Below are positions 28,698 through 43,011 of a DNA stretch of 64,000 bases, one piece after another; the first letter of the stretch is position 1, and each line of letters begins with the position of its first letter. Location: the NCBI GenBank assembly GCA_039795775.1, contig JBDKLC010000003.1, forward strand, positions 797 to 64,796. The letters are read 5' to 3'. Made by a program: the position numbers and the translations under genes. Under the pieces are notes generated by a model, which was given only the letters and a program-made list of their open reading frames with translations, did no database searches and was not told where the DNA came from. Origin of the DNA: Candidatus Parcubacteria bacterium (GTDB taxonomy: Bacteria > Patescibacteriota > Minisyncoccia > Phycocordibacterales > CAIZLB01).

Positions 28698-30074
28698 ATG
28701 CAAACAAATACAGGTGGCTCAACGCGTTCACATGAACGTGACCTTAAAATTGAGTATGTCCCTTTATCAACCCTATCTTCTCCCGACTATAACCCTCGGA
28801 CATGGAGCAAGGAAACGACTGAGCAACTCAAAGAAAGTATCAACAGATACGGAGTCGTTGATCCTCTGCTTGTTAACTCCGCAGAGAATCGTAAAGGCAT
28901 TGTTATCGGAGGAAACTTCAGACTTTCAGTTCTCAAGGAATTGAATTTTGAAACCGTGCCAGTTGTCTACATAAATATTCCTGATCTCAAGAAAGAAAAG
29001 GAATTGTGTATTCGACTCAACAAGAACCAAGGCGAATGGGATCTTGAACTTCTTTCAAAGTTTGATGAGGCAATACTGAAAGATATAGGTTTCAATTCAG
29101 AATCGCTTGATGATATTTTCGAGGAAGATGACAAAGAAGAACAATTCGACTTACAGAAAGAACTCGACAAATTAAATATCGAAAGTATCAGTGTTCAGAA
29201 GGGTGATGTCTACGACCTCGACGGTTCTCGCCTCATGTGCGGAGACTCAACTATAGAATCCGACATGATGAAGCTATGCGGAGAAGAAAAGGTAGATATG
29301 GTAATGACTGATCCTCCGTATATACTCGACTATCTTCATGGAAAGACTAAACACGGTGAAGCCACTACTGGTTTCGGTGCAAAGAAGAATCGAAGGTACT
29401 TGGAGACTGAAAGTTTGCCTGACAATTTCACTGAGTTATGGATGAACAACGTGAAGAAAGTACAGGCAGAAAACTTCTCAATCATCTGTTATGAGAACTG
29501 GAAGAACATTCGTACCATTTGGGGCGAAATGGAAAAGCATTGGAAAGTTCGCAATATGATCGTCTGGCATCTTCCAAACAGAAACCAAGGGTATGCAGGA
29601 AAGCACAAGTTCTTCTCAAAACATGACATTGCAATGGTTGGCACAAGTGAAAATCATGAAGGAGTCGATCCTGAAGCGGAGGCTGATCCATTGCTTGAGA
29701 ACGAATACCAGACTGCGCTATTCGCTATCAACAAGAGTCCTCATTGGGAATCATATGGTAAAGGTAAGAAATATTGCCCGACCGACTTCATTGACTACAA
29801 TGCAGCCGACGAGAAGTCTTCTGGCCAAGGAATCATATTCGGAACTAAGCCAACAGAAATATTAGTTCCGTACATAAAGGTATTAACTAGACGAGATCAA
29901 ACAGTACTTGAACCATTCTGCGGAAGCGGGAGTACATTGATTGCAAGTACAAAATTGAAAAGACGATGCTTCATCATGGAAAAATCACCAGTCTATGCGG
30001 AGGTCGCGCTTAATCGCTGGGAAAAGTTTACCGGCAAGAAAAGAGTAAAAATCAATGTACAGCCGACATGTTAA
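28698..30074 (+). CDS. ParB-like nuclease domain fused to a beta-class DNA (N6-adenine/N4-cytosine) methyltransferase; orphan MTase typical of phages and plasmids
   Basis: N-terminal ParB/Srx-like region, motif IV TDPPY preceding motif I EPFCGSGST (beta-class order). Confidence 0.7.
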   Translation: MQTNTGGSTRSHERDLKIEYVPLSTLSSPDYNPRTWSKETTEQLKESINRYGVVDPLLVNSAENRKGIVIGGNFRLSVLKELNFETVPVVYINIPDLKKEKELCIRLNKNQGEWDLELLSKFDEAILKDIGFNSESLDDIFEEDDKEEQFDLQKELDKLNIESISVQKGDVYDLDGSRLMCGDSTIESDMMKLCGEEKVDMVMTDPPYILDYLHGKTKHGEATTGFGAKKNRRYLETESLPDNFTELWMNNVKKVQAENFSIICYENWKNIRTIWGEMEKHWKVRNMIVWHLPNRNQGYAGKHKFFSKHDIAMVGTSENHEGVDPEAEADPLLENEYQTALFAINKSPHWESYGKGKKYCPTDFIDYNAADEKSSGQGIIFGTKPTEILVPYIKVLTRRDQTVLEPFCGSGSTLIASTKLKRRCFIMEKSPVYAEVALNRWEKFTGKKRVKINVQPTC

Positions 30075-30663
30075 AAAAGAAATTGTTGCAGCACTTACCG
30101 AGACTCCCTTCATCTATAGAGTATGTAAAAAATTCGGAGTAGCCAGATCAACATTTTACAAATGGCTCAAGGATGACAAGAATTTTTCGAGTGATGTAGT
30201 GATAGCACTTCGAGAAGGAAAAAGAAGTATGAATGAGCTTGCACTATCAAGTCTTGTTAAGCGAGTGAGCGATGGTCACTTTCCAGCAATACGATATTTC
30301 CTTCAGCATAACCATGGTGACTATAGACCACCTGAAAAGGTAAACTCAGTAGCTATGTGGAATGCTCGTATGAGCGCTCTGAGGAAAAAGAAAGAAGAAG
30401 CTCCGTATGAGACATGGAATCCTGAATCTAAATTCCACGATAGTCTTAGTACTAAGCAAGAGATTATGCTCGAGTTACTATTGGAATACAATAGTGTTGA
30501 AGAAGTCAGTATCGATATACGTTCTGAATATTTCGCCAAAGTACTTGAAGATGAGTTCAAAAGTATTACTGAGGCTGAACAATATCTAAAACAAGCGATA
30601 CAACTTGAGAAGGAGTCAGCGAAGCCTTCAGAATCGGCTGATGCAAACCAAACTTCTGGCTAG
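30055..30663 (+). CDS. HTH-domain protein (phage small-terminase-like / transposase-like HTH)
   Basis: GVARSTFYKWL helix-turn-helix. Overlaps the upstream MTase by 20 nt, suggesting coupled translation. Confidence 0.35.
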   Translation: MYSRHVKKEIVAALTETPFIYRVCKKFGVARSTFYKWLKDDKNFSSDVVIALREGKRSMNELALSSLVKRVSDGHFPAIRYFLQHNHGDYRPPEKVNSVAMWNARMSALRKKKEEAPYETWNPESKFHDSLSTKQEIMLELLLEYNSVEEVSIDIRSEYFAKVLEDEFKSITEAEQYLKQAIQLEKESAKPSESADANQTSG

Positions 30664-30941: not shown

Positions 30942-31322
30942 TTATTTAAACAAGATTAATAAGAGAATAATCGCGATGATTGTAAGTAATCCCGCAACTG
31001 CTCCAAGCTGTGCGAATGCAAAATATATTGCACCAACTCCAATGAGGAAGAGGAGTAGTCCAACGATCTTACTTCTTCGAGCTTCGAGGAGGGCTTTTAG
31101 TGTTCCTAAAATGAGCGCGCCTACAATTACAATTCCTGCGAGTAGTATTATTGCTCCAATTCCAGAAAACATTCCTGAAAGGATATTTTCTGGAATATTA
31201 ATAAATCCATAGTAACCAATTGTGCCAATAAGTATTCCGATTATTGGTATGGTTATTAAAAGTACAATAGAACCATAAGCTCCACTTAGAGCTTTGGTCA
31301 GCACTGTTTTTATTTTATTCAT
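30942..31322 (-). CDS. hypothetical integral membrane protein (start taken at MNKIK)
   Basis: Four TM helices, adjacent to the receiver gene. Confidence 0.35.
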   Translation of the reverse strand: MNKIKTVLTKALSGAYGSIVLLITIPIIGILIGTIGYYGFINIPENILSGMFSGIGAIILLAGIVIVGALILGTLKALLEARRSKIVGLLLFLIGVGAIYFAFAQLGAVAGLLTIIAIILLLILFK

Positions 31323-31615
31323 GTTTTTGCGGTTTTTTAACCCGACATAGGATTTTTTTCCATACAAAAATCCCTTAGCCAGGACGATGGTATTACCCAC
31401 CCACACCAGTTTCCCGATGTGACCGCAAAAGTGACCCTAGACTAAGGGGTTTTTATACTTTTGCGGTGTTTATGACCATATCCTAGAAAACCAAGGGTCT
31501 TTTAGGGGTTAGGTCGCTTATTAAGTTGTAAATGAATTGTAGCAGATTTTCCGCTACTTTTGTACCTTAGCTTAGATATGGAGGCTTGCGAAGGGGTGGT
31601 TACCAACAACTCAAT

Positions 31616-32344
31616 TTAGCAGACTGTTGATCCAATTGTCTCAAGCTTCTCCTTAACTTTCTCCCATTTAGGAAACTTCTTGTCGAGAAAATCATAGAAC
31701 CGTTTATCATGGTTCTTATACTTCATGTGACAGAGTTCGTGTACGATAACATAATCAATACAGTCCTTTGAGGTATGAATAAGCCTAGGATTGAGGAATA
31801 TCTTATCCTGATTTAAGAAACTGCCCCAACGTTTCTTCATTTCTCTAACGGAAAGTTTCGGTGTGTTCTTGAAGTCAAAGAGTGAAAGCATTTCAGTGAA
31901 TCTGTCTTGGAGAATTAGGTTTGTCTTTTCTGCAAACCAGCTATCAACGAGTTTTTTGTTGTACTTGCTGTCTGTCACGGACTTAGTTGTAGATACAATC
32001 AACTGACCTCTAGTGAGAGAAACAGAATCTTCTTTACCTTTACGAACAATTAGTTTGTACTGTCTTCCGAGGTACAAATATCCCTCTCCCGAGATGTATT
32101 CTTTCTCATAAGTCTTTCGTTGATATTTTTTGAAGAATGAAAGTTGCTTCTCTAGCCAGAACCATTTCTTCTGGAGAAAGGTTTCGATTCTTTCGCCCTC
32201 TGCCTTGAATGGACACTTAACAATAATACGAAGATCTGGGGTGACAGTGAGGCTCAGGGTTTTACGATCTTGTTTTATAAGTTGGTATTCATATATGAAT
32301 GTTCCAAAAATGAATTCCTTCATATAATTATAAGAATAGATCAA
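31616..32344 (-). CDS. DUF45/YgjP-like (M48-related) metal-dependent hydrolase, a family frequently linked to hsdR
   Basis: HELCH zinc-binding HExxH motif, overlaps the hsdR stop. Confidence 0.6.
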   Translation of the reverse strand: MIYSYNYMKEFIFGTFIYEYQLIKQDRKTLSLTVTPDLRIIVKCPFKAEGERIETFLQKKWFWLEKQLSFFKKYQRKTYEKEYISGEGYLYLGRQYKLIVRKGKEDSVSLTRGQLIVSTTKSVTDSKYNKKLVDSWFAEKTNLILQDRFTEMLSLFDFKNTPKLSVREMKKRWGSFLNQDKIFLNPRLIHTSKDCIDYVIVHELCHMKYKNHDKRFYDFLDKKFPKWEKVKEKLETIGSTVC

Positions 32345-35300
32345 AGTTATTTTCTGCTAATTGCATTGCAGTATCAATAACGACCTTGATGTGATCATTA
32401 TCAATATTGATGCCTTTCTCGCCCTTAAACACATCGTAGAGGTAATCATCAATACTATTTCGCATCTTACGCTTCACATCCATGTTCTTGTACCAGTCTA
32501 CAATTGCCTCATTCTTAATGATCGTGAAGATATCAAGAATGGTGGCAATATAAACATCTTCACTGAGATTCAAATTTGCAAGCTCAGATCGCAAGTTACG
32601 ATAGAACACGTCTGATCCTTTCTGCGATTCAATTTTTTCTGGAAGACTCTCGTCTTTCTTGTTTACCACATCATCACTAATAAGCTTCATTTGTTTCAGA
32701 GCTTCAACATCAGCAAGTTTTCCTTGTCTCATTTTCTCAAGAATGTTAGAAATCTTCTTAGAGAATTTCTCATAGAATTCAGGGTCAGTATCCATTTTTT
32801 CTGTGATAGTCCTTTCAGTCTGTGCAGCGATTGCCTCAGCCTTTGATTTGTCAGAACCGAGTTCTGCTACAGCTTCTTCAAACTGCTTTCGATCAGTAAT
32901 GTTTACTTGCTTTGTGAGCAACTCAACACCACGAGCATCCACATACTTATCAAGGATATTGATAAGTGATTGTTTGTATTCAAGAAGATCAACACGGTCG
33001 GCATACTTCAAGCTCGCAGACTTACGAAGTTCCATAAACTTTTTAAGTTCACGTTTATAGAGATCAAGGTGCTTGAATTCATGAACGAAGTCCTGCAACA
33101 CAAAGCATTCGTTCAGGTTCTTGATGAACTCATTAAGTGTCTTGTAGAAAGTCTCACGCTTTGGCTGATCAGAAAGGAATTGGAGGTACACCTCATCATC
33201 GTTCGATCCTTTGATCTCATTAAACAAATCGTGGACAGTTCCATAGCTTTGTTCGAGATCTTGTATCTTTTCTGACACATCAATAAGAGTTCCTTTAATA
33301 TCGTTCTCATCATAGTTACCGAAAAGCTTCATAGCTGTATCAATGTTTTTAGCGTTCTCTGAGTAGTCCATGATATAGCCCGCAGTCTTTGGTTTTTCCT
33401 TTTTGTTTTCGTAAAGACGGTTTACACGAGCGATAGCCTGAAGTAGGTTATGATCTCTCAAGTCTTTAGCGAGATAGAGTACTGTGTTACGAGGTGCATC
33501 AAAGCCAGTGAGTAGCTTGTCTACCACGATGATCATCTCGATACCGTCATCGTTGTGCTTAAAGCTATCAACAACATCTTTTTCATATTTCTCAACACTA
33601 CTGTGATTTTTTCGAACACCCTCTAGGTATCCGACCACTTCTTTTTTGTGAAGATTTTCTTCATCACCGTCTTCATGCTCGTCGGAAATAATTACAGCAG
33701 TACGAACGTTTCCACGAGTCTCAAAGAACTTCTGGAAAAGAATTGCTGAATATTTAGATGGAGCAACAATTTGCGCCTTAAGCCCTGTGTATTGGAAGTT
33801 GTCGATAAAGTGCTTCTCTATATCATAAGCAATCTCAACAATACGCTGAGGATTGTCTTTAATTATCTTACTTCCAACGTATCGCTGTAGTTCCTTCTTC
33901 TGCTTATCATTGAGTCCTTCAGTGATTCGTTCAACATGGCGGTCAATCTGTTCCGCATTCTGAATAAGATCAACATAACGACCTTCGTAGATAAGGGGAA
34001 GAATAATCTTATCAGCTAAAGCATCATCAATCGTATACTTGTCGATATAGTCACCGAACTTCTTCCAACTCTCTCGGTCTTTCTTCATGAGAGGGGTACC
34101 AGTAAATCCGATGTAGCATGCATTTGGGATGATTCGATTCATCTCAAAGTTAGCCATACCGTTTTGACTTCGGTGCGCCTCGTCGATAAGGACAAAGATG
34201 TTTTTATCATCATCAATAAATCCTGTACTCTTTTTTGCAGCTGATTCAAACTTCTGAACAAGTGTAGTGATAACAGACAAATCTTTCTCCTTAATAAGAT
34301 CAATCAGGTGCTGACCACTTGTAGCCTGAATGACTTCCTTTTTGAGGTTACAGTTTTTGAATGTATCTTTAATTTGCTTGTCCAAATCCTTACGATCAGT
34401 AACGATGATCACACGAGGGTTGAGAATATGAGGATCTTCAATAAGGGTCTTCACAAACATCACCATGGTAAGCGATTTACCAGATCCTTGAGTGTGCCAA
34501 ACAAGCCCACCTTTTCGTCGAGTAATACCGTGATCAGTTACTTCTTCCTCTTCTACGCGCTTGAGCATCTTATGTATAGCAAAATACTGTTGGTATCGTG
34601 AAAGCTTCTTTACTCCTGCATCAAAGAGAATGTAATTCTTTGTTAGGTCTAAAAGTCTTTTTGGTTCGAATAAGAACATAACCCCACAATCCTGTTCGGT
34701 AGGAAGTCTGTCTGTTCTTTGTTTATGACCGTCAGTATATCCGTTCAAATCTTCAAGTACTTGAGTATATATTTCAGTATCAATTTTTTTATGAATAAGA
34801 CCTAATAGCTTTTCGCTAAGTATTTCCTGATCTGATCCTTTTTCTTTCCATACTGCATAGAACTTGTTAGGTGTACCAGTAGTTCCATACTGCAATTCTT
34901 TTCCATTAGTACCAACAAGAAGTTGAGTGTAAGTAAAAAGTTTAGGACAGAATTCAGGGCCCTGATTACGATTCATTTGATTGATAGCTTCCTTTACATC
35001 TACACTAGACTTTTTGTTCTCAATCACCGCAAAAGGGATACCGTTTACGAAGACTACGATATCGGGACGGACATTTTGTTTACCACTTGCTACAAATTCT
35101 ACAGAGACATGGAATGAGTTATTTTCTGGGTTCTCGAAGTCTATGAACTTAAAGTTCTTTGATACTTTCTTGCCCCCGTGATTTACTTTGATTGTCTTAC
35201 CTCCACTCGTTGGCATGATAGTGTTGTAGATCTTTTGTGCAGTATCTATAAGCCCTTCATACTGAATATGCTCAAGTTCATCGATGGCGTCTCGCACATC

Positions 35301-35522
35301 TTTCTCGCTGAATTTATATTCAACACCATCAACTTCGTATCCGTTGATTTCCATGAGCTTCTCCGCAGCAATGTCAGCGAGGATGAAGTTTGAAGTGTCA
35401 CCACGTTGTCGCAGTGCTTCAGCAACAGAAACATACTTGTAACCCATGTTCAACAGAAGCTCTACAAATGGGAGCTGTGACTGTCTGGCTTCATCGAAAT
35501 TTACGTTTATGAGTGATGACAT
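32328..35522 (-). CDS. hsdR: Type I restriction enzyme R subunit
   Basis: SF2 helicase motifs TQGSGKSLT (Walker A), DEAH (FVLIDEAHRSQ), 1064 aa. Confidence 0.92.
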   Translation of the reverse strand: MSSLINVNFDEARQSQLPFVELLLNMGYKYVSVAEALRQRGDTSNFILADIAAEKLMEINGYEVDGVEYKFSEKDVRDAIDELEHIQYEGLIDTAQKIYNTIMPTSGGKTIKVNHGGKKVSKNFKFIDFENPENNSFHVSVEFVASGKQNVRPDIVVFVNGIPFAVIENKKSSVDVKEAINQMNRNQGPEFCPKLFTYTQLLVGTNGKELQYGTTGTPNKFYAVWKEKGSDQEILSEKLLGLIHKKIDTEIYTQVLEDLNGYTDGHKQRTDRLPTEQDCGVMFLFEPKRLLDLTKNYILFDAGVKKLSRYQQYFAIHKMLKRVEEEEVTDHGITRRKGGLVWHTQGSGKSLTMVMFVKTLIEDPHILNPRVIIVTDRKDLDKQIKDTFKNCNLKKEVIQATSGQHLIDLIKEKDLSVITTLVQKFESAAKKSTGFIDDDKNIFVLIDEAHRSQNGMANFEMNRIIPNACYIGFTGTPLMKKDRESWKKFGDYIDKYTIDDALADKIILPLIYEGRYVDLIQNAEQIDRHVERITEGLNDKQKKELQRYVGSKIIKDNPQRIVEIAYDIEKHFIDNFQYTGLKAQIVAPSKYSAILFQKFFETRGNVRTAVIISDEHEDGDEENLHKKEVVGYLEGVRKNHSSVEKYEKDVVDSFKHNDDGIEMIIVVDKLLTGFDAPRNTVLYLAKDLRDHNLLQAIARVNRLYENKKEKPKTAGYIMDYSENAKNIDTAMKLFGNYDENDIKGTLIDVSEKIQDLEQSYGTVHDLFNEIKGSNDDEVYLQFLSDQPKRETFYKTLNEFIKNLNECFVLQDFVHEFKHLDLYKRELKKFMELRKSASLKYADRVDLLEYKQSLINILDKYVDARGVELLTKQVNITDRKQFEEAVAELGSDKSKAEAIAAQTERTITEKMDTDPEFYEKFSKKISNILEKMRQGKLADVEALKQMKLISDDVVNKKDESLPEKIESQKGSDVFYRNLRSELANLNLSEDVYIATILDIFTIIKNEAIVDWYKNMDVKRKMRNSIDDYLYDVFKGEKGINIDNDHIKVVIDTAMQLAENNFDLFL

Positions 35523-35526
35523 ATGT

Positions 35527-36774
35527 TTATTTGGTTAGTTTGGTTGATAATGTTTCTGGTGTGCGTATTTTGCCTGTAATGAGATTGTTGAGAAGGTAGC
35601 GTTTCTGTTCTTTGAAGATGGAAAGTTTCTTTTCAAGTGAATCAATCTCGTTATCTGTTGCTGTGAGAATGTTTGCAATAGCCGTTTGTTCCTTAATTTT
35701 CGGTATATGTATAACAACTTCGGAGACCGTCTCTTTTTTTAAGTTCTGCACTCCTGAACCTGCAGAGATAGAGCGAAATACGCTTTGAATTCTCGATGAG
35801 GAAAGGAGATAGTAAAGAAAGTCCTTATTGACTGATGATGAGATATCCATTAGCGCCAACCAACCGTCGTGTATACAAGCATTAATTTTCATTATGTAAG
35901 GACGACCAAAACTCATTGAATTTGAAAGAATAAAATCTCCTTCTTTTACTAATGTAGTTTTATTAAGTCCCTCCTTTTTAATCTTTTCAGTTGTCTTATA
36001 AATAAATCTGTCTCCAATTGGCACATCTCCAATTCTTAACCAATTCAGTCCGTCTTTATTTTCTGTAATATAATCCTGAATTGGTCGTGGTGATCCACCT
36101 CTTTTTATCTCGCAAATCTCACCAAGTACTTTGAATTCCCATTTATCTTCGAAACCTTTCAATCTCTTATTACCAGTGAGTAAATCTTGCATTAGGCCTT
36201 TTTTTACATTCTTCTTTACTTTTATTTTTTCAGTAATTTTTTCAATCAATTTGTCCCAAGTTTCAAGGACTGAAACAATACGATTTTGTTCAGATAGTGG
36301 AGGAAAGTTTAATTTAATCTTTTCGAAATCACCTTTTGAAACTTCAAGAAATGTACTGCCAGACCCCAATTTCATTAGAGTAGGCTTGATTGATTTAATG
36401 AAATAAAACAAATAATCCACCGTTGTATCTTTTTTTGGAATCAGATTTTTAAAACCTTGATTTGTAGAAATTGGATACGTAGAGATAGAACATTCTCCAA
36501 CCGTCGCACGAGTACAAACAATGAGACTCCCTTTTGGAAGCAATCTTGCGGAGCTATTTTTAAGACCAAGCTCTGTAATCTTCTTCTCTGTCTTTAATGT
36601 TATATATTTACCTGTTTTTGTGATTTCAGTTGGGGTTATCCAGTTTATTTCACCGTCCCAAAAATCTTTATTATTTGTATCAGGTGTGCCTCCAGACGAT
36701 ATATGTGAAACATCTGCAAGTGTAACTTGTGTCCAGCCAGATGGGATATCTTTTTGTAATTGATTATTTTTCAT
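35527..36774 (-). CDS. hsdS: Type I restriction-modification specificity subunit (two target-recognition domains)
   Basis: Two TRDs separated by a conserved helical spacer (LSEQNRIV...), with a C-terminal conserved region. Confidence 0.85.
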   Translation of the reverse strand: MKNNQLQKDIPSGWTQVTLADVSHISSGGTPDTNNKDFWDGEINWITPTEITKTGKYITLKTEKKITELGLKNSSARLLPKGSLIVCTRATVGECSISTYPISTNQGFKNLIPKKDTTVDYLFYFIKSIKPTLMKLGSGSTFLEVSKGDFEKIKLNFPPLSEQNRIVSVLETWDKLIEKITEKIKVKKNVKKGLMQDLLTGNKRLKGFEDKWEFKVLGEICEIKRGGSPRPIQDYITENKDGLNWLRIGDVPIGDRFIYKTTEKIKKEGLNKTTLVKEGDFILSNSMSFGRPYIMKINACIHDGWLALMDISSSVNKDFLYYLLSSSRIQSVFRSISAGSGVQNLKKETVSEVVIHIPKIKEQTAIANILTATDNEIDSLEKKLSIFKEQKRYLLNNLITGKIRTPETLSTKLTK

Positions 36775-36775
36775 A

Positions 36776-38023
36776 TTATTTGATTCTTGGTTTTTTCTTA
36801 AATAGATTTAATGTGTACTCAATTTTATTTAACAATTCATCAAAAGTAATAATCATTACCTCATTATTTGAAGACCTGAATAGTTCAAAACTATCTTTTT
36901 GTTTCGGGCTTAGATTTTTTAAATCACCAGCAATAACCACACATTGTGAATTTGAAATTTGTAAGCCAGATCCACCAAGTTTGGAATAGAAGTTTTTTAG
37001 CAATTCATGCTTCTGATCCTGAACTTGAATAAGTGAGCCAGACAAGTCCTTGCTTATAGGAAAAATACCTTTTCGATATTCTGTCTTCATTATTATGGGT
37101 GTTTTATGAGTTTTTATTTCTATAAAAGCAACGTTGTTGGTTAGATTGTTTTTATATAGAAAATCAACAATTTTATCACTATTGGTTTCTGTAATATTAT
37201 TGCCCCCGACATTAAATTTGTCTTTTGTAAGTGATACTGGAAAATAGAATACATTGCTAAAAATCCAGTTATTTTCATTGAAAAACTTTTGCCAATCCTC
37301 TTCTTTTGTATTTACTTTTAATAATCTTTTATATCTAGAAAGAATGTCCTCAACATATAAAGTGTCGATCTGCCCCTTTGAGGAAAGTAGTATTTCTTTA
37401 CTTAGAATCTTTTTATCAATAAAACCCTTAATGACAATTGAATCAGCATCAGATAGCTTCATCTGATCTATTTCGTATTTATTGAAGAAATTAGACAAGT
37501 CGTTTTCAGTATATTGAATTTTTTGAGCTACACTAAACTTAGATGGCAAAACTGAGTTAAAGATATTTTGATGCGTCTGTCTCAATTCCTTACTCTGCTT
37601 CTCTTTATTTTTTTGTGTACTATATTCAATTTTCCTGAAATCAGTTAAAAGGATTTGAAGTTTACCATTCTTGATTTCTGTTTTACCTTTTTCTAAAAAG
37701 ACAACTTCTTCAATATTTGGATATTTATCTTGAAAAAAATAAAACAAATCCTGAACTCCTTTAGGTTTTGTGAATCCGAAACCGCTCGAAACATTCACAG
37801 ATATACCTGAAGAAGGTCTTTTGCCTCCTGTGGTTGTAATCTTTTTTATAGAGCTATACTTATGTTTAATGGTCCCAAATGAGTTGTAAAATGGGTATCT
37901 TGTTATATTACCATTCGTAAATCTCTCTAAAGCCAAGAAGCCAGTGTCCTTATCCTTTAAATAAAGATTGAATGATTCTTTTAACTTAGTTTTATTTGCC
38001 GACACAAGAGAAACATCTTTCAT
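36776..38023 (-). CDS. PD-(D/E)xK nuclease-fold protein, Shedu (SduA/DUF4263)-like, embedded between hsdM and hsdS
   Basis: C-terminal block EEDWQKFF..NNWIF...DKIVDFLY-x10-VAFIEIK...QVQDQ...CVVIAGDL...FELFR...MIITFDELL matches my recollection of the DUF4263 profile. D-x15-ExK spacing is as in characterised Shedu. Confidence 0.5.
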   Translation of the reverse strand: MKDVSLVSANKTKLKESFNLYLKDKDTGFLALERFTNGNITRYPFYNSFGTIKHKYSSIKKITTTGGKRPSSGISVNVSSGFGFTKPKGVQDLFYFFQDKYPNIEEVVFLEKGKTEIKNGKLQILLTDFRKIEYSTQKNKEKQSKELRQTHQNIFNSVLPSKFSVAQKIQYTENDLSNFFNKYEIDQMKLSDADSIVIKGFIDKKILSKEILLSSKGQIDTLYVEDILSRYKRLLKVNTKEEDWQKFFNENNWIFSNVFYFPVSLTKDKFNVGGNNITETNSDKIVDFLYKNNLTNNVAFIEIKTHKTPIIMKTEYRKGIFPISKDLSGSLIQVQDQKHELLKNFYSKLGGSGLQISNSQCVVIAGDLKNLSPKQKDSFELFRSSNNEVMIITFDELLNKIEYTLNLFKKKPRIK

Positions 38024-38027
38024 ATAT

Positions 38028-39539
38028 TTATTTGATTCCTAGTTCCTTTAGGTATACGACCATTTGTTTCTCAAGCTTCTCAAGCTGTGGCTCAAGCTCA
38101 GCAAGCTCTTTCAGGTTTGCTTTGATATCTACAGGAGCTTCTTCGGTAAACGTATCCACATAGCGAGTGATATTAAGGTTGAAATCATTCTCCTCAATTT
38201 CTTTAAGACTTACTTTACGAGCAAACTTCGCTACATCTTTGCGAGCCTTGTAGGTAGAGTAAATCTTTTCGATGTTTTCATCGGTGAGAATATTTTGAGC
38301 TTTGTTAGATTTGAATTCCTTTGATGCTTCGATAAAGAACACATCTTTTTTACTTTCATTTTCTCCACCTTTTTCTCGTGAGCGATCGATAACAAGAATT
38401 GCGACAGGGATACCCGTTGTTTGGAATAGTCCTGCAGGAAGTCCGATTACAGCCTCAATGATATTTTCCCTGAGAAGTTGTTCACGAATTTTACCTTCTG
38501 CACCACCTCGAAAGAGAACGCCGTGAGGAACAATAACAGCAATACGTCCTGTCTTTGGCTTTGCTGTCTCAATCATGTGAGTAATAAAGGCAAAGTCACC
38601 CTTGTCCTTTGGTGGAGTGCCACGCCAGAATCGTTTGTATTTGTCGGCATCTGCATGTTCAGCGCCCCATTTCTTGAGAGAGAACGGTGGGTTACTTACG
38701 ATTGTATCGAATTTCATTAAGTGATCATTTTCTACAAGGAGTGGATTATTTAAAGTATCGCCCCATTCAAGTCGCGCTGAATCTTTTCCATGGAGAAACA
38801 TGTTCATTCGAGCGAGTTGATATGTTGAACCTGTTGATTCTTGGCCATAGAGAGCGTAGTTCTTTGAACCTTGTTTTTCTACTTCTTCACCTGCAAGTAA
38901 AAGGAGACCTCCTGATCCAGAACATGGGTCACAAATACGAGCACCTGCTTTTGGTTCTGCAAGTTTTGCTACGAGATGAGCAACATTCCTTACTGTAAAA
39001 AATTCTCCAGCTTTTTTTCCTGCATCTGCTCCAAACTTCTCAATAAGATACATATATGAGTTACCAATGACATCATCATTCACGCCAGTGAGGTCAATTT
39101 TTGCAAAGTCCTGTACAAGATTACGAAGCATCTTGTTTCGCTCTGCAAGTTTTCCAAGATTTGATTCTGAGTTGAAGTCTACAGAAAATACACCATCAAG
39201 TTTTTCCTTGTTGTGATCTTCAATACGATGAAGTGCTTTGTTTATTTCTTCTCCAAGATTATCTTGCTCGATAATTGAATAGATATAGTCAAACGATGAC
39301 TTCGGAGGGAGATAGAAGCGGTCAAGCTTCATTTTCTCTTCAATACGTTTCTCATCACCTGCGAATCTTTTTTTGTATTCGTCATGTGTGTTTTTTGATT
39401 TATCGCTAAGATATTTCAAGAAAAGCATTGGGAGTACATAGTTCATGTAATCCGCCGCATTGAGTTGGCTTCGAGAGGAGTTTGCTGAGTCCCATAGGAT
39501 TTTATTTAGGTCTTCTTGTGTGTATTTTTTGTTGGTCAT
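38028..39539 (-). CDS. hsdM: Type I restriction-modification N6-adenine DNA methyltransferase subunit
   Basis: Motif I CDPCSGSGG and motif IV NPPF. Confidence 0.92.
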   Translation of the reverse strand: MTNKKYTQEDLNKILWDSANSSRSQLNAADYMNYVLPMLFLKYLSDKSKNTHDEYKKRFAGDEKRIEEKMKLDRFYLPPKSSFDYIYSIIEQDNLGEEINKALHRIEDHNKEKLDGVFSVDFNSESNLGKLAERNKMLRNLVQDFAKIDLTGVNDDVIGNSYMYLIEKFGADAGKKAGEFFTVRNVAHLVAKLAEPKAGARICDPCSGSGGLLLLAGEEVEKQGSKNYALYGQESTGSTYQLARMNMFLHGKDSARLEWGDTLNNPLLVENDHLMKFDTIVSNPPFSLKKWGAEHADADKYKRFWRGTPPKDKGDFAFITHMIETAKPKTGRIAVIVPHGVLFRGGAEGKIREQLLRENIIEAVIGLPAGLFQTTGIPVAILVIDRSREKGGENESKKDVFFIEASKEFKSNKAQNILTDENIEKIYSTYKARKDVAKFARKVSLKEIEENDFNLNITRYVDTFTEEAPVDIKANLKELAELEPQLEKLEKQMVVYLKELGIK

Positions 39540-39540
39540 G

Positions 39541-40185
39541 TTAGTTCTTAGTTAAGTTAGTAAAGCTTGCGTTGATAATGGTTTTTTGAATTTCTTGTTT
39601 TCTTTTAAATATCCGTTCTTGTTCAATAATATTTTCGTGGAGCGCGATGATCGACTTCTGCGTATGGATAGGAGGTATTGGTATTGGGAAGTCCGTGAGG
39701 TTTTTCACAAGGATGCTTTGTATATATGAAGCACCTGTGACTATTTGAGCGAGAGCTTTTTGCCCATCCTGTGAATTGAGATATAGGGATACATACTTCG
39801 GGAGAACGGTAACATCTTTGATTCGGATGACATGAACCGATGATGAGGGCATCACGTTTGTGTTGTCTGAAGCAAAAACAGCAGAACGGAATGACCCAGC
39901 ACCTGAGCCTCTGGAAACGAGTAAAATGTCGTTATGTTCAAGAAAGTAAGGGTTTCTAATGGATTTGTCTGAAACGATAACTAGGTCATTAGTATTCAAA
40001 ATATCTTGATTTATAGCTATATTCTTGGCTTGTAGCACAAAAATAGCGCCTTTTGGGTCGTTTTCGATGGATCCACGGAATGTGTACCCAGAGGCCATGT
40101 CTGCTATTTCGCTCAATTTCTTGTGCATGTAAGGACTATACTGCACTTTACAATAAAATGCAAATTTAGGTCTTTTAGTTACCAA
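39541..40185 (-). CDS. hsdS: half-size Type I specificity subunit (single TRD plus conserved helical region), first gene of the R-M operon
   Basis: Single TRD-like region followed by ...IIALHENIIEQERIFKRKQEIQ conserved HsdS helix. 214 aa, about half the size of a normal HsdS. Confidence 0.6.
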   Translation of the reverse strand: MVTKRPKFAFYCKVQYSPYMHKKLSEIADMASGYTFRGSIENDPKGAIFVLQAKNIAINQDILNTNDLVIVSDKSIRNPYFLEHNDILLVSRGSGAGSFRSAVFASDNTNVMPSSSVHVIRIKDVTVLPKYVSLYLNSQDGQKALAQIVTGASYIQSILVKNLTDFPIPIPPIHTQKSIIALHENIIEQERIFKRKQEIQKTIINASFTNLTKN

Positions 40186-40232: not shown

Positions 40233-41558
40233 ATGAAGACAATAGATCAAATGCCAGGGGCTATGACTGCCCGAGGAATCATAAGCGAGGTAAAGGTGAA
40301 ATACTGCCTTTATGCGAGAAAATCAACAGAATCAGAGGAACGACAAGTCCTTTCAATAGATAGTCAGATCAAAGAAATGCTCCAGTTAGCAGACCGTGAA
40401 GGGCTTGAGGTGGTCACCATGAAGCGTGAGAGTCATTCAGCAAAGGAAACGGGGCAACGACCAGTCTTCAACGAGATCATCGAGGAACTGCGTGATGGCA
40501 AGTTCAATGGAATTTTGACATGGGCACCTGACCGTATTTCAAGAAACGCAGGAGACCTTGGAAGGATAGTGGATCTAATGGATGCGGGTAAGCTTCAAGA
40601 AATCAGGACTTTCGGGCAGAAGTTCGGGAACAACCCAAACGAGAAATTCTTGCTGATGATTCTCGGATCACAAGCAAAGCTCGAGAATGATAATAGAGGT
40701 ATCAACGTGAAGCGAGGATTGCGAACAAGGGTGGAGATGGGGCTGTGGCCAGGAGTGGCACCTCTTGGGTATCTCAACCAAAGAAATATCGACAAGAAGT
40801 GTCAACTTGTAGTTGATGAGCTACGTGCACCGCTGGTAAAAAAAATATTTGAAAGGGTCGCATATGAGAAATTAAGTGGAAGAAAGATATACAATTGGCT
40901 TCGATTCGAAGCCAATTTCTATACACGAGGAAACAAACCACTTACACTCGGGGGTGTATACAGGATATTGGAAAATCCCTTCTATTATGGAATGTTCGAA
41001 TATCCAAAAGATAGTGGTAATTGGTATCAAGGAAAACATGAATCAATAATCACAAAGGAATTATTCGATGAAGCACAGTCACAGCTGAAGCGAGATAATA
41101 TACAAAGAGAAAATAAAGAATTCGCATTTACCAAACTCTTCACATGTGGATACTGTGCGAGTGGAATTTCCGCAGAAGAAAAATGGAAACAATTAAAAGA
41201 TGGTACGCATGCGAAATACATTTACTACTCATGTGCAAGATCGAGGGATAGGAATTGTAAGAATCAATATATCCGAGAGGAAGATCTGATCGTCGAGATG
41301 CTGAAGATACTCGATAAAGTAAATATTAATGAGCTTGGCATGAGACAGAAATTAGAGGACGAAATCGCTCGATTCAATATCTTCCAAAGATCAGTACTTG
41401 GGAGCACAGACAAGATTGGTAATAGAAAAGATACCGACATACGAAATTATGCAAAGTACATACTAAAAGAGGGTGCGGTGACAGAGAAGCGAGAGTTACT
41501 TGCGAATTTGCGGAGCAAGATTATATATAAGGATAAGGTTCTAACTTTGATAGATTAG
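40233..41558 (+). CDS. large serine recombinase (resolvase/integrase family)
   Basis: N-terminal resolvase catalytic domain (YARKSTE..Q.. with Ser nucleophile), recombinase domain, C-terminal zinc ribbon CGYC...C..C. Confidence 0.8.
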   Translation: MKTIDQMPGAMTARGIISEVKVKYCLYARKSTESEERQVLSIDSQIKEMLQLADREGLEVVTMKRESHSAKETGQRPVFNEIIEELRDGKFNGILTWAPDRISRNAGDLGRIVDLMDAGKLQEIRTFGQKFGNNPNEKFLLMILGSQAKLENDNRGINVKRGLRTRVEMGLWPGVAPLGYLNQRNIDKKCQLVVDELRAPLVKKIFERVAYEKLSGRKIYNWLRFEANFYTRGNKPLTLGGVYRILENPFYYGMFEYPKDSGNWYQGKHESIITKELFDEAQSQLKRDNIQRENKEFAFTKLFTCGYCASGISAEEKWKQLKDGTHAKYIYYSCARSRDRNCKNQYIREEDLIVEMLKILDKVNINELGMRQKLEDEIARFNIFQRSVLGSTDKIGNRKDTDIRNYAKYILKEGAVTEKRELLANLRSKIIYKDKVLTLID

Positions 41559-42793
41559 CGTTTATTTCTATCCTTATATTTTTTCTTTCGTAGGCCTAAG
41601 TGATACTTATGAAATTCATCATCATCTCGTTCCTTTTCAATTTCAATATGTTGCATACAACGACCTCGGCGATATGGACCAAATAATTCTGCAAACTCTC
41701 CTTGAAACCAAGGGAGGGTTTGATGCTCGGTACCTTTATTTGTTTCTGATTCAAAATCTGGATCTCCAGGCAATCTTCCATATTCATCCATTGCTCCAGA
41801 ACCACCTGGGCCACCACCCCACATTATTGTCCCGCCCCAATGAATAGCTCTCGGATCAGGCATCAATAAATAACCATGACCATAGGTGTTCCAATTTGAT
41901 TTTGATACAAATTTCTCTGGATAGAGCCATTCCTTTTTTGCTGCGGCAATATAGCGATTCGCTCTGCTCTTAATAATGAAATTAATTTCGCGTACTTCCT
42001 GTTCACTTAAATATCGACGCACTTGAATATCTGTAAATTTAAATATTGCACCTCGAAAAGGATTCGGGTTGGGTCTTACGTTAGTTGCAGGCTGATATGG
42101 ATTTCTAACCCAAGAAAGATTTGTAAGTATTAAGATCTTATCTAAAGATAGAGGAAAGATTGTGTGAGTTCCTTGTAACCAGATGGCAGGATCATTTGAT
42201 TCTCTACACTGTTGTGATCGAGGACCGCATTCTCGATTGTAAACAGTGACAGGGTGATCTGAAATAATAAATTTAGTATCTGATTTTGATGCATCCGCTA
42301 TTAACCAAACGCATTCAGTCCACAAAGCACAGTGTATTCTTCCTAGTTTAAGCATACTTCGTAAAATATCGTCTTTATTTGTACTTTCTATTTCTTTACT
42401 CAGCCATGTCAAACCTTTTGGTGTTCGAAGTTTTTGAGTACTCATGTAGTTCATGATGTCTTCAAATGAATTACGCCAATCTGTTAGTGGGTAATCAAAT
42501 TTTTCAAAATACTCAACAGCAGGCTTTCCTTTAGTATCAATTTGCCCAAAGAAATGTTTTTCAATATCTTTTGGTTGTATCCCTGTAATCTTCGTTGTAT
42601 ACAAATCTTCTTCAACAAAACACTTTTTACTACCTTGTCTCCATAGGGATTGCTTATCGTGCTTAATACCTCTCGGGTCTATAAAATAACCTGGTTTCAT
42701 GTCTAGGTAGAAAAGTTCCGACTCCTCGGGGAGCATAAACTTTTTTTGGTACCATTGAGGTACATAATGATGGTTTTTATAGTCGTCACTCAT
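41555..42793 (-). CDS. DUF4238-like protein (defense-island associated family of unknown function)
   Basis: N-terminal HHYVPQWYQKKF matches the DUF4238 signature H-Y-[IV]-P-Q-F-Y-L. 412 aa. Confidence 0.5.
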   Translation of the reverse strand: MSDDYKNHHYVPQWYQKKFMLPEESELFYLDMKPGYFIDPRGIKHDKQSLWRQGSKKCFVEEDLYTTKITGIQPKDIEKHFFGQIDTKGKPAVEYFEKFDYPLTDWRNSFEDIMNYMSTQKLRTPKGLTWLSKEIESTNKDDILRSMLKLGRIHCALWTECVWLIADASKSDTKFIISDHPVTVYNRECGPRSQQCRESNDPAIWLQGTHTIFPLSLDKILILTNLSWVRNPYQPATNVRPNPNPFRGAIFKFTDIQVRRYLSEQEVREINFIIKSRANRYIAAAKKEWLYPEKFVSKSNWNTYGHGYLLMPDPRAIHWGGTIMWGGGPGGSGAMDEYGRLPGDPDFESETNKGTEHQTLPWFQGEFAELFGPYRRGRCMQHIEIEKERDDDEFHKYHLGLRKKKYKDRNKR

Positions 42794-42921: not shown

Positions 42922-43011
42922 TGGCGGAGGAGGTGAGATTCGAACTCACGGGACCCTTGCGAGCCCTCCTGTTTTCAAGACAGGTGCAATCGACCACTCT
43001 GCCACTCCTCC
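42922..43011 (-). tRNA. tRNA-Ser (anticodon TGA), long variable arm
   Basis: Hand-folded: acceptor GGAGGAG/CTCCTCC + G + CCA, anticodon loop CTTGAAA, long extra arm, T-loop GTTCGAATC. Confidence 0.85.

Follow-up and report, generated by a model that had tools for sequence, protein, structure and literature searches.

The window analyzed here is a stretch of 64,000 nucleotides (nt) of the Candidatus Parcubacteria contig JBDKLC010000003.1 (GCA_039795775.1, positions 797 to 64,796), and its minus strand carries sduA, a gene for a 415-amino-acid (aa) protein, inside a Type I restriction–modification (R-M) operon. This protein is a Shedu of Type 1 architecture, composed of a Shedu-specific N-terminal domain, a helical linker and a C-terminal DUF4263 nuclease. 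An earlier reading of the bare sequence, hereafter the original prediction, had placed a 415-aa protein at 36776–38023, and an ATG-to-stop open reading frame (ORF) is found on the minus strand at exactly those positions. An identical protein is already in the databases under MEN9649113.1; it is annotated as a "hypothetical protein" and comes from a metagenome-assembled genome (MAG) of a Candidatus Parcubacteria bacterium. The gene and its parts are the following.

36776..38023 (including the stop codon), minus strand: sduA, 415-aa Shedu immune nuclease (ATG-to-stop ORF; Pfam SduA_C; PADLOC SduA)
37508..38023, minus strand: putative N-terminal regulatory/sensor domain, residues 1–172, with a β-rich subdomain (1–125) and a long helix (126–158) in the AlphaFold model
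37310..37507, minus strand: α-helical linker, residues 173–238, with helices 175–181, 192–203 and 209–236 in the full-length model
36776..37309, minus strand: DUF4263/SduA_C PD-(D/E)xK nuclease domain, residues 239–415 (Pfam residues 239–398; Foldseek; 8TI8 alignment)
E241 37301–37303, D287 37163–37165, E302 37118–37120, K304 37112–37114 and Q333 37025–37027, minus strand: catalytic codons (codon positions checked)

The assignment to the Shedu (DUF4263) PD-(D/E)xK nucleases, as made in the original prediction, was borne out by profile searches and by structure comparison. Pfam PF14082 (SduA_C) matches at 90.3 bits against a gathering score of 27 (E = 1.9e-25), with residues 239–398 aligned to positions 2–159 of the 159-position profile. 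Fifteen SduA models of PADLOC match as well, the best being PDLC00384 (E = 2.6e-61, model positions 117–462 of 476, 73% coverage), and the protein thus passes PADLOC's stringent thresholds for a single-gene Shedu (E ≤ 1e-25 and at least 50% model coverage; Payne et al. 2021). No NCBIfam model matches the 415-aa protein. In a phmmer comparison with the Bacillus cereus Shedu (8TI8) the D...ExK residues are in register (E = 1.4e-30), and the family profile finds 8TI8 at E = 2.2e-62 and Escherichia coli SduA (EcSduA, 8PS4) at E = 2.9e-08. An AlphaFold model of the full-length protein has a mean pLDDT of 85.8, with most of the nuclease region at 84–94, and Foldseek aligns it to 8TI9 (E = 1.1e-13, TMt 0.84, root-mean-square deviation 2.5–3.1 Å) and, at E ≤ 1e-11, to 8TI8 and 8PS4/8PS5. 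Homologues number 264 at E ≤ 1e-5, and about 95 cluster representatives align to the protein nearly end to end; among them are RefSeq entries of Flavobacterium, Parapedobacter, Chitinophaga and Kangiella that already bear the name "Shedu immune nuclease family protein". The signal is far beyond chance and, judged by its sequence, the protein is a genuine member of the Shedu (SduA) family.

The active site is complete. Gu et al. describe four Shedu motifs, namely a Glu (I), an Asp (II), Glu-x-Lys (III) and a Gln (IV), and all four are present here as E241, D287, E302/K304 and Q333, each of which is invariant in an alignment of 61 near-full-length homologues. The sequence blocks quoted in the original prediction are likewise all there (VDFLY at 286–290, FIEIK at 300–304, QVQDQ at 333–337, CVVIAGDL at 361–368, FELFR at 379–383 and MIITFDELL at 390–398); its D-x15-E-I-K motif stands but the spacing needs correction, since 14 residues lie between D287 and E302. 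Just before D287 lies the only internal segment that is modeled with low confidence, a predicted loop of residues 268–285; the motif II loop of B. cereus Shedu, which has a regulatory role, is mobile (Gu et al.), and the low confidence here fits with that. The order of domains is that of Type 1, with a β-rich domain at residues 1–125, helices at 126–236 and the nuclease from residue 239.

Modeled on its own with AlphaFold, the N-terminal domain reaches a pLDDT of 94.3 and a pTM of 0.84 and consists, in this order, of a β-rich subdomain, a helix, a three-stranded sheet and a long helix. Residues 1–172 are basic (net charge +15, isoelectric point about 9.8), and conserved positions include K15, E33, Y43-P44, K55-Y56, G73 and G81-x-GFT85, with lysine and aromatic sites being kept. 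The composition had been described as Lys/Ser-rich over about 240 aa, which is correct for the N-terminal 238 aa (K 14.3%, S 9.7%) but does not set them apart by lysine, as the C-terminal half is Lys-rich too (12.4%). No Pfam or NCBIfam model matches the N-terminal domain. PF21407, the N-terminal domain of Bacillus-type SduA, is absent here, though other matches of the same search carry it, and the protein does not fall into the Bacillus-type class, Type 1A, that is recognized by PF21407 or an sPC4/Whirly fold. Foldseek of the isolated-domain model against the PDB returned nothing (best E = 0.59), and a sequence-profile search likewise gave no match.

A profile of residues 1–172 run against 1.84 billion representative proteins retrieved 125 proteins, the complete ones of which are about 410–440 aa long. 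Weaker matches of 455–590 aa share just the second half of the domain, and all nine of those tested carry PF14082; one other tested match, of 1,367 aa, is a low-complexity outlier. As far as these profile matches reach, the N-terminal domain is rare and restricted to Shedu proteins. Its description as novel in the original prediction therefore holds for the missing Pfam and NCBIfam matches and fails for uniqueness, given the roughly 95 end-to-end representatives and the partial coverage by PDLC00384, which aligns from residue 73. The Shedu proteins of PDLC00384 and PDLC00380 (about 460–515 aa) also contain the linker and nuclease of the present one and, from about residue 70 on, the second half of its N-terminal domain with the GFGFT region. 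They exceed it by 45–100 aa, and their extreme N-terminus is different. The β-sheet subdomain formed by the first 65 or so residues appears to be specific to the ~415-aa family.

Among solved structures, the closest nuclease domain is that of B. cereus B4264 Shedu (8TI8, 8TI9, 8TIA; Type 1A), whose motifs I–IV are identical (E, D, ExK, Q) and whose domain layout is the same, at 382 aa compared to 415 aa here. The nuclease of EcSduA, a DNA-end-sensing nickase (8PS4, 8PS5, 8PS6), is far more distant, as the E-value from the family profile shows. The helical linker matches that described for both enzymes, the layout of EcSduA being 1–145, 146–188 and 195–408. According to Loeff et al., EcSduA is a tetramer in which the N-terminal domains clamp free double-stranded (ds) DNA ends and direct nicking, and removal of the N-terminal domain turns the protein into a toxic nuclease. 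A full-model Foldseek alignment of 404–429 columns had raised the possibility that the N-terminal domain is shared with EcSduA; the alignment was set aside as evidence, as the Foldseek search with the isolated domain came back empty. A very distant kinship to the EcSduA DNA-end clamp is possible: the two resemble each other weakly, without support from Foldseek or sequence profiles, and the end-stacking Trp25 of EcSduA has no established counterpart here. Gu et al. divided 7,687 Shedu proteins into Type 1, with 79 N-terminal domain clusters mostly of unknown function, and Type 2.

The sduA gene is part of a tight co-directional block, which opens with a half-length hsdS and continues with hsdM, sduA, hsdS, hsdR and ygjP. 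Its other genes are listed below.

39541..40185, minus strand: extra single-domain "half" hsdS, 214 aa (Methylase_S E = 6.1e-09; PADLOC Specificity_I), 1 nt upstream of hsdM
38028..39539, minus strand: hsdM, Type I methyltransferase subunit (N6_Mtase E = 1.5e-99, 334 bits; HsdM_N; PADLOC MTase_I)
35527..36774, minus strand: hsdS, Type I specificity subunit with two target-recognition domains (Methylase_S in two stretches, E = 1.5e-50, 172 bits; PADLOC Specificity_I)
32328..35522, minus strand: hsdR, Type I restriction/translocase subunit (HSDR_N 121 bits, SWI2_SNF2 265 bits, ResIII, T1R_D3-like; PADLOC REase_I E = 2.9e-146)
31616..32344, minus strand: gene for a YgjP-like (M48/WLM-type) metallopeptidase (PF01863 E = 2.6e-52), overlapping the end of hsdR by 17 nt

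The host Type I system is intact, as hsdM, the two-domain hsdS and hsdR (nuclease plus SF2 motor) are all full-length ORFs. On its upstream side sduA is separated from hsdM by 4 nt and on its downstream side from hsdS by 1 nt; at neither junction are promoter-like sites in excess, and terminator-like sites are absent from both. Because of these gaps and the lack of such signals, sduA is almost certainly cotranscribed with the Type I operon. The ygjP gene closes the operon in seven relatives as well (L001, L002, L017, L019, L039, L053 and L079). A 208-aa ORF equivalent to the half-hsdS sits upstream of hsdM in L001. The half-hsdS product has no similarity to the main HsdS; it might serve as an alternative specificity subunit. 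A phase-variable hsdS shufflon was considered and rejected, since the two S proteins are dissimilar and no inverted or direct repeats occur among the half-hsdS, hsdS and the adjacent serine recombinase gene.

The closest loci, L001 and L002 (Nomurabacteria and a MAG labeled Gammaproteobacteria), keep the order hsdM-sduA-hsdS-hsdR-ygjP. Both hsdM and sduA are colinear with their counterparts there at 72–78% DNA identity; hsdS shows the divergence that target-recognition domains usually undergo. An alignment of the three SduA proteins needs no gap in its 415 positions; dN (nonsynonymous substitutions per site) is 0.08–0.21 and synonymous sites are saturated, in the N-terminal and nuclease domains alike. 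This saturation makes dS (the synonymous counterpart) by the NG86 method incomputable for most comparisons, so that we give dN and the sole computable dN/dS ratio, which is 0.03. Because dN is low and synonymous sites are saturated in both domains, purifying selection is strong on both halves of the protein, which indicates that sduA is functional and maintained.

In base composition sduA stands out from its operon: its GC content (0.296) and its GC at third codon positions (GC3, 0.269) are the lowest of all genes in it (hsdR GC3 0.384; window GC 0.402), which hints at a foreign origin. The dip extends over sduA and hsdS together (35500–38000), with GC at 0.30–0.33 compared to about 0.40 in hsdM, hsdR and the window as a whole, and GC3 at 0.27–0.28 compared to 0.33–0.42 in the neighboring genes; this would fit an exchange or acquisition of sduA and hsdS independent of the other operon genes. 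A 17-nt repeat of 88% identity is found at the 3' ends of sduA and hsdM (36776–36792 and 38028–38044, within the junctions 36738–36828 and 37990–38080). It reads (G/A)GAATCAAATAA, then T or ATAT, then ATGAAA(A/G)AT, includes the following start codon, exactly brackets the 1,252-nt sduA unit and is much weaker in L001 and L002. The repeat may be a cassette-insertion scar at an original hsdM|hsdS junction, or it may represent shared ribosome-binding or translational-coupling signals.

To see how general the arrangement is, we turned to 80 related loci from GTDB species genomes, 54 of which have at least 4 kb on either side of the Shedu gene; 31 of these well-flanked loci share the N-terminal domain. 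Co-directional embedding in Type I genes is found in nine of the 31, with the other 22 having no adjacent Type I genes, and several short contigs show the same embedding. Two gene orders occur, that of the window (M-Shedu-S-R) and M-S-Shedu-R, and more than one family of Type I systems serves as host, with HsdR proteins that are 26–77% identical to that of the window. In a neighbor-joining tree the embedded members fall into at least five clades, interleaved with nonembedded ones, and the sister clade of the window's own group is not adjacent to Type I genes. Embedded cases come from Patescibacteria, Bacteroidota, Gammaproteobacteria and one archaeon. Full-length relatives that stand alone (from Flavobacterium, an unclassified bacterium and Saccharimonas) adjoin integrases, a SIR2-HerA pair or a DpnII R-M system with Fic. 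As embedding is a minority state that recurs in multiple clades, in two orders and with varied Type I families, and as stand-alone relatives exist, the Shedu family is autonomous and mobile and lands repeatedly in Type I operons. The subfamily is embedded unusually often, and in several independent lineages.

Two observations on these loci concern transfer. Four loci (L020, L022, L026 and L080, from Seonamhaeicola, the gammaproteobacterium Kangiella, a Balneolales MAG and a Flavobacteriales MAG) encode near-identical Shedu proteins, each in an M-S-Shedu-R operon, and this near-identical Balneolales/Kangiella/Flavobacteriia clade indicates that the entire module, R-M genes and Shedu together, has recently passed between phyla. 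L001 (CAZFEF010000002.1, "uncultured Gammaproteobacteria") is syntenic with the window at 67–73% DNA identity over the recombinase, hsdM, sduA and hsdR-ygjP, and is either a mis-binned contig or an island that moved between very distant hosts.

Embedding of this kind has been catalogued before. Of 5,499 Shedu genes surveyed by Gu et al., 602 lie inside R-M systems, Type I included, and Payne et al. assembled a "guilt-by-embedding" set of defense genes in Type I R-M operons. The remark in the original prediction that a Shedu within a Type I operon had not been functionally described stands to the extent that we found no functional study of a Type I-embedded Shedu, or of the present subfamily, in the literature; as a genomic arrangement it is known for hundreds of Shedu genes, and the present sduA is a genuine, fairly ordinary member of the family. 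With the embedded genes of the Payne et al. set, PrrC (EcoprrI) and TgvAB among them, it shares tight co-directional packing with hsd genes and an effector nuclease whose mechanism differs from that of the host R-M system. PrrC differs in being an RNA anticodon nuclease that its R-M partner restrains and that hardly ever occurs unembedded, and TgvAB, the functionally tested embedded defense system of Vibrio cholerae VPI-2, in being a two-protein, modification-dependent, GmrSD-like system. Unlike PrrC, the Shedu subfamily stands alone in most cases and is embedded in roughly one quarter to one third of them, and its embedding is thus not near-obligate.

Taken together, sduA encodes a Type 1 Shedu nuclease that is almost certainly cotranscribed with an intact Type I operon and probably serves as an autonomous second defense layer. 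By analogy with the B. cereus and E. coli enzymes, SduA would form a homotetramer in which the N-terminal domain and linker hold the nuclease off. Encounter of the basic N-terminal domain with a nucleic-acid feature associated with phage would then release the nuclease, which would nick or cut DNA. Free DNA ends, as recognized by EcSduA, are our leading guess for this feature because the domain is basic and weakly resembles the EcSduA clamp fold. SduA would act independently of the Hsd proteins and cover phages that escape restriction, with embedding bringing coregulation and coinheritance rather than physical partnership. We favor autonomy because close relatives stand alone, because embedded loci are nine of 31 and spread over at least five clades, and because single-gene systems have precedents in EcSduA and B. 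cereus Shedu, whose N-terminal domains are autoinhibitory.

The position of sduA, just 4 nt from hsdM and 1 nt from hsdS, may also be read as functional coupling to the Type I system, with SduA either acting as a PrrC-like guard against antirestriction or being activated by double-strand ends made by HsdR and so amplifying destruction. Inheritance of hsdM-sduA-hsdS-hsdR-ygjP as a unit in L001 and L002 and the recurrence of embedding among the well-flanked relatives would fit such a role, as would the activation of EcSduA by free dsDNA ends, which Type I cleavage produces, and the finding that embedded TgvAB protected V. cholerae 10- to 100-fold better in its full cluster than alone. We nevertheless consider coupling unlikely, since most relatives with the same N-terminal domain, the sister clade included, lie away from Type I genes, since both the operon position (M-D-S-R or M-S-D-R, with D for the Shedu gene) and the Type I family vary, and since PrrC guards are almost exclusively embedded (Payne et al.) and this subfamily is not; neither covariation nor an interaction surface is in evidence. 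Quite unlikely, too, is the related proposal that repeated independent capture by Type I operons reflects a real partnership, a composite two-nuclease system with SduA as a sensor of ends or stalled translocation or as a guard. If it were true, the N-terminal domain would sense ends produced by HsdR or stalled translocation intermediates and the Shedu nuclease would finish off restricted DNA; in the other version, a guard would be released once antirestriction proteins disable the HsdM/HsdS complex.

Two further explanations were considered. SduA might be a modification-dependent (Type IV-like) or constitutive nuclease that attacks modified phage DNA and complements the Type I system, instead of sensing ends or structures; Gu et al. 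propose restriction-like behavior for Type 2 and PUA-domain Shedu, and TgvAB and BrxU, embedded partners of Type I and BREX systems, are modification-dependent. The present protein has the Type 1 layout, and we regard this explanation as very unlikely. That sduA is a passenger remnant, an inserted cassette that is transcribed yet nonfunctional or decaying, would be in keeping with its low GC and GC3, which are consistent with foreign origin, and with the near-repeat at both junctions, but is extremely improbable: the frame is intact, the length of 415 aa is that of the orthologues, the catalytic residues are invariant, both domains show the marks of strong purifying selection, and lineages far enough apart for synonymous sites to be saturated still have the same arrangement. 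An autonomous Shedu sharing the operon is the explanation that we retain.

In itself, this is one more Shedu from a bacterium of the candidate phyla radiation in a family of thousands, and one that an automated PADLOC run would call. Its subfamily is of wider use: being small (about 125 clusters), well conserved and confidently modeled, it is well suited to the question of what a third kind of Shedu sensor recognizes, and its frequent embedding in several lineages makes it a compact natural test case for a proposal made by Gu et al. and Payne et al., by which embedded defense genes would cooperate with the R-M system around them as opposed to merely sharing its promoter.

The operon's surroundings point to a mobile context. 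Upstream of the R-M block and divergent from it lies a gene for a large serine recombinase (Resolvase, Recombinase and zinc-ribbon domains; 40233–41558, plus strand), followed by a DUF4238 gene (41555–42793, minus strand) and a tRNA-Ser gene (42922–43011, minus strand). L001 shares the order tRNA, recombinase, half-hsdS and hsdM but has no DUF4238 gene. The layout suggests that the R-M/Shedu module is carried by an integrative island associated with a tRNA gene; between the tRNA-Arg and tRNA-Ser genes no att-like direct repeats were found. At the other end, about 100 nt downstream of ygjP, a full-model LOOT RNA (Rfam RF03000; 31386–31515, minus strand; 71.4 bits against a gathering score of 46.4) overlaps the start of a mechanically called ORF (30942–31406). 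We ruled this RNA out as a part of the module, as it is not beside the operon in L001, L002 and L017 (the L001 contig ends about 120 nt past ygjP). Farther beyond the operon, a 458-aa ORF (28698–30074, plus strand), whose end is overlapped by a 202-aa ORF (30055–30663, plus strand), resembles, from its translation as read by eye, a ParB-like domain fused to a DNA methyltransferase. A 455-aa ORF of L001 (2142–3509) is possibly its equivalent, and the 458-aa ORF could be an orphan methyltransferase or mobile-element cargo.
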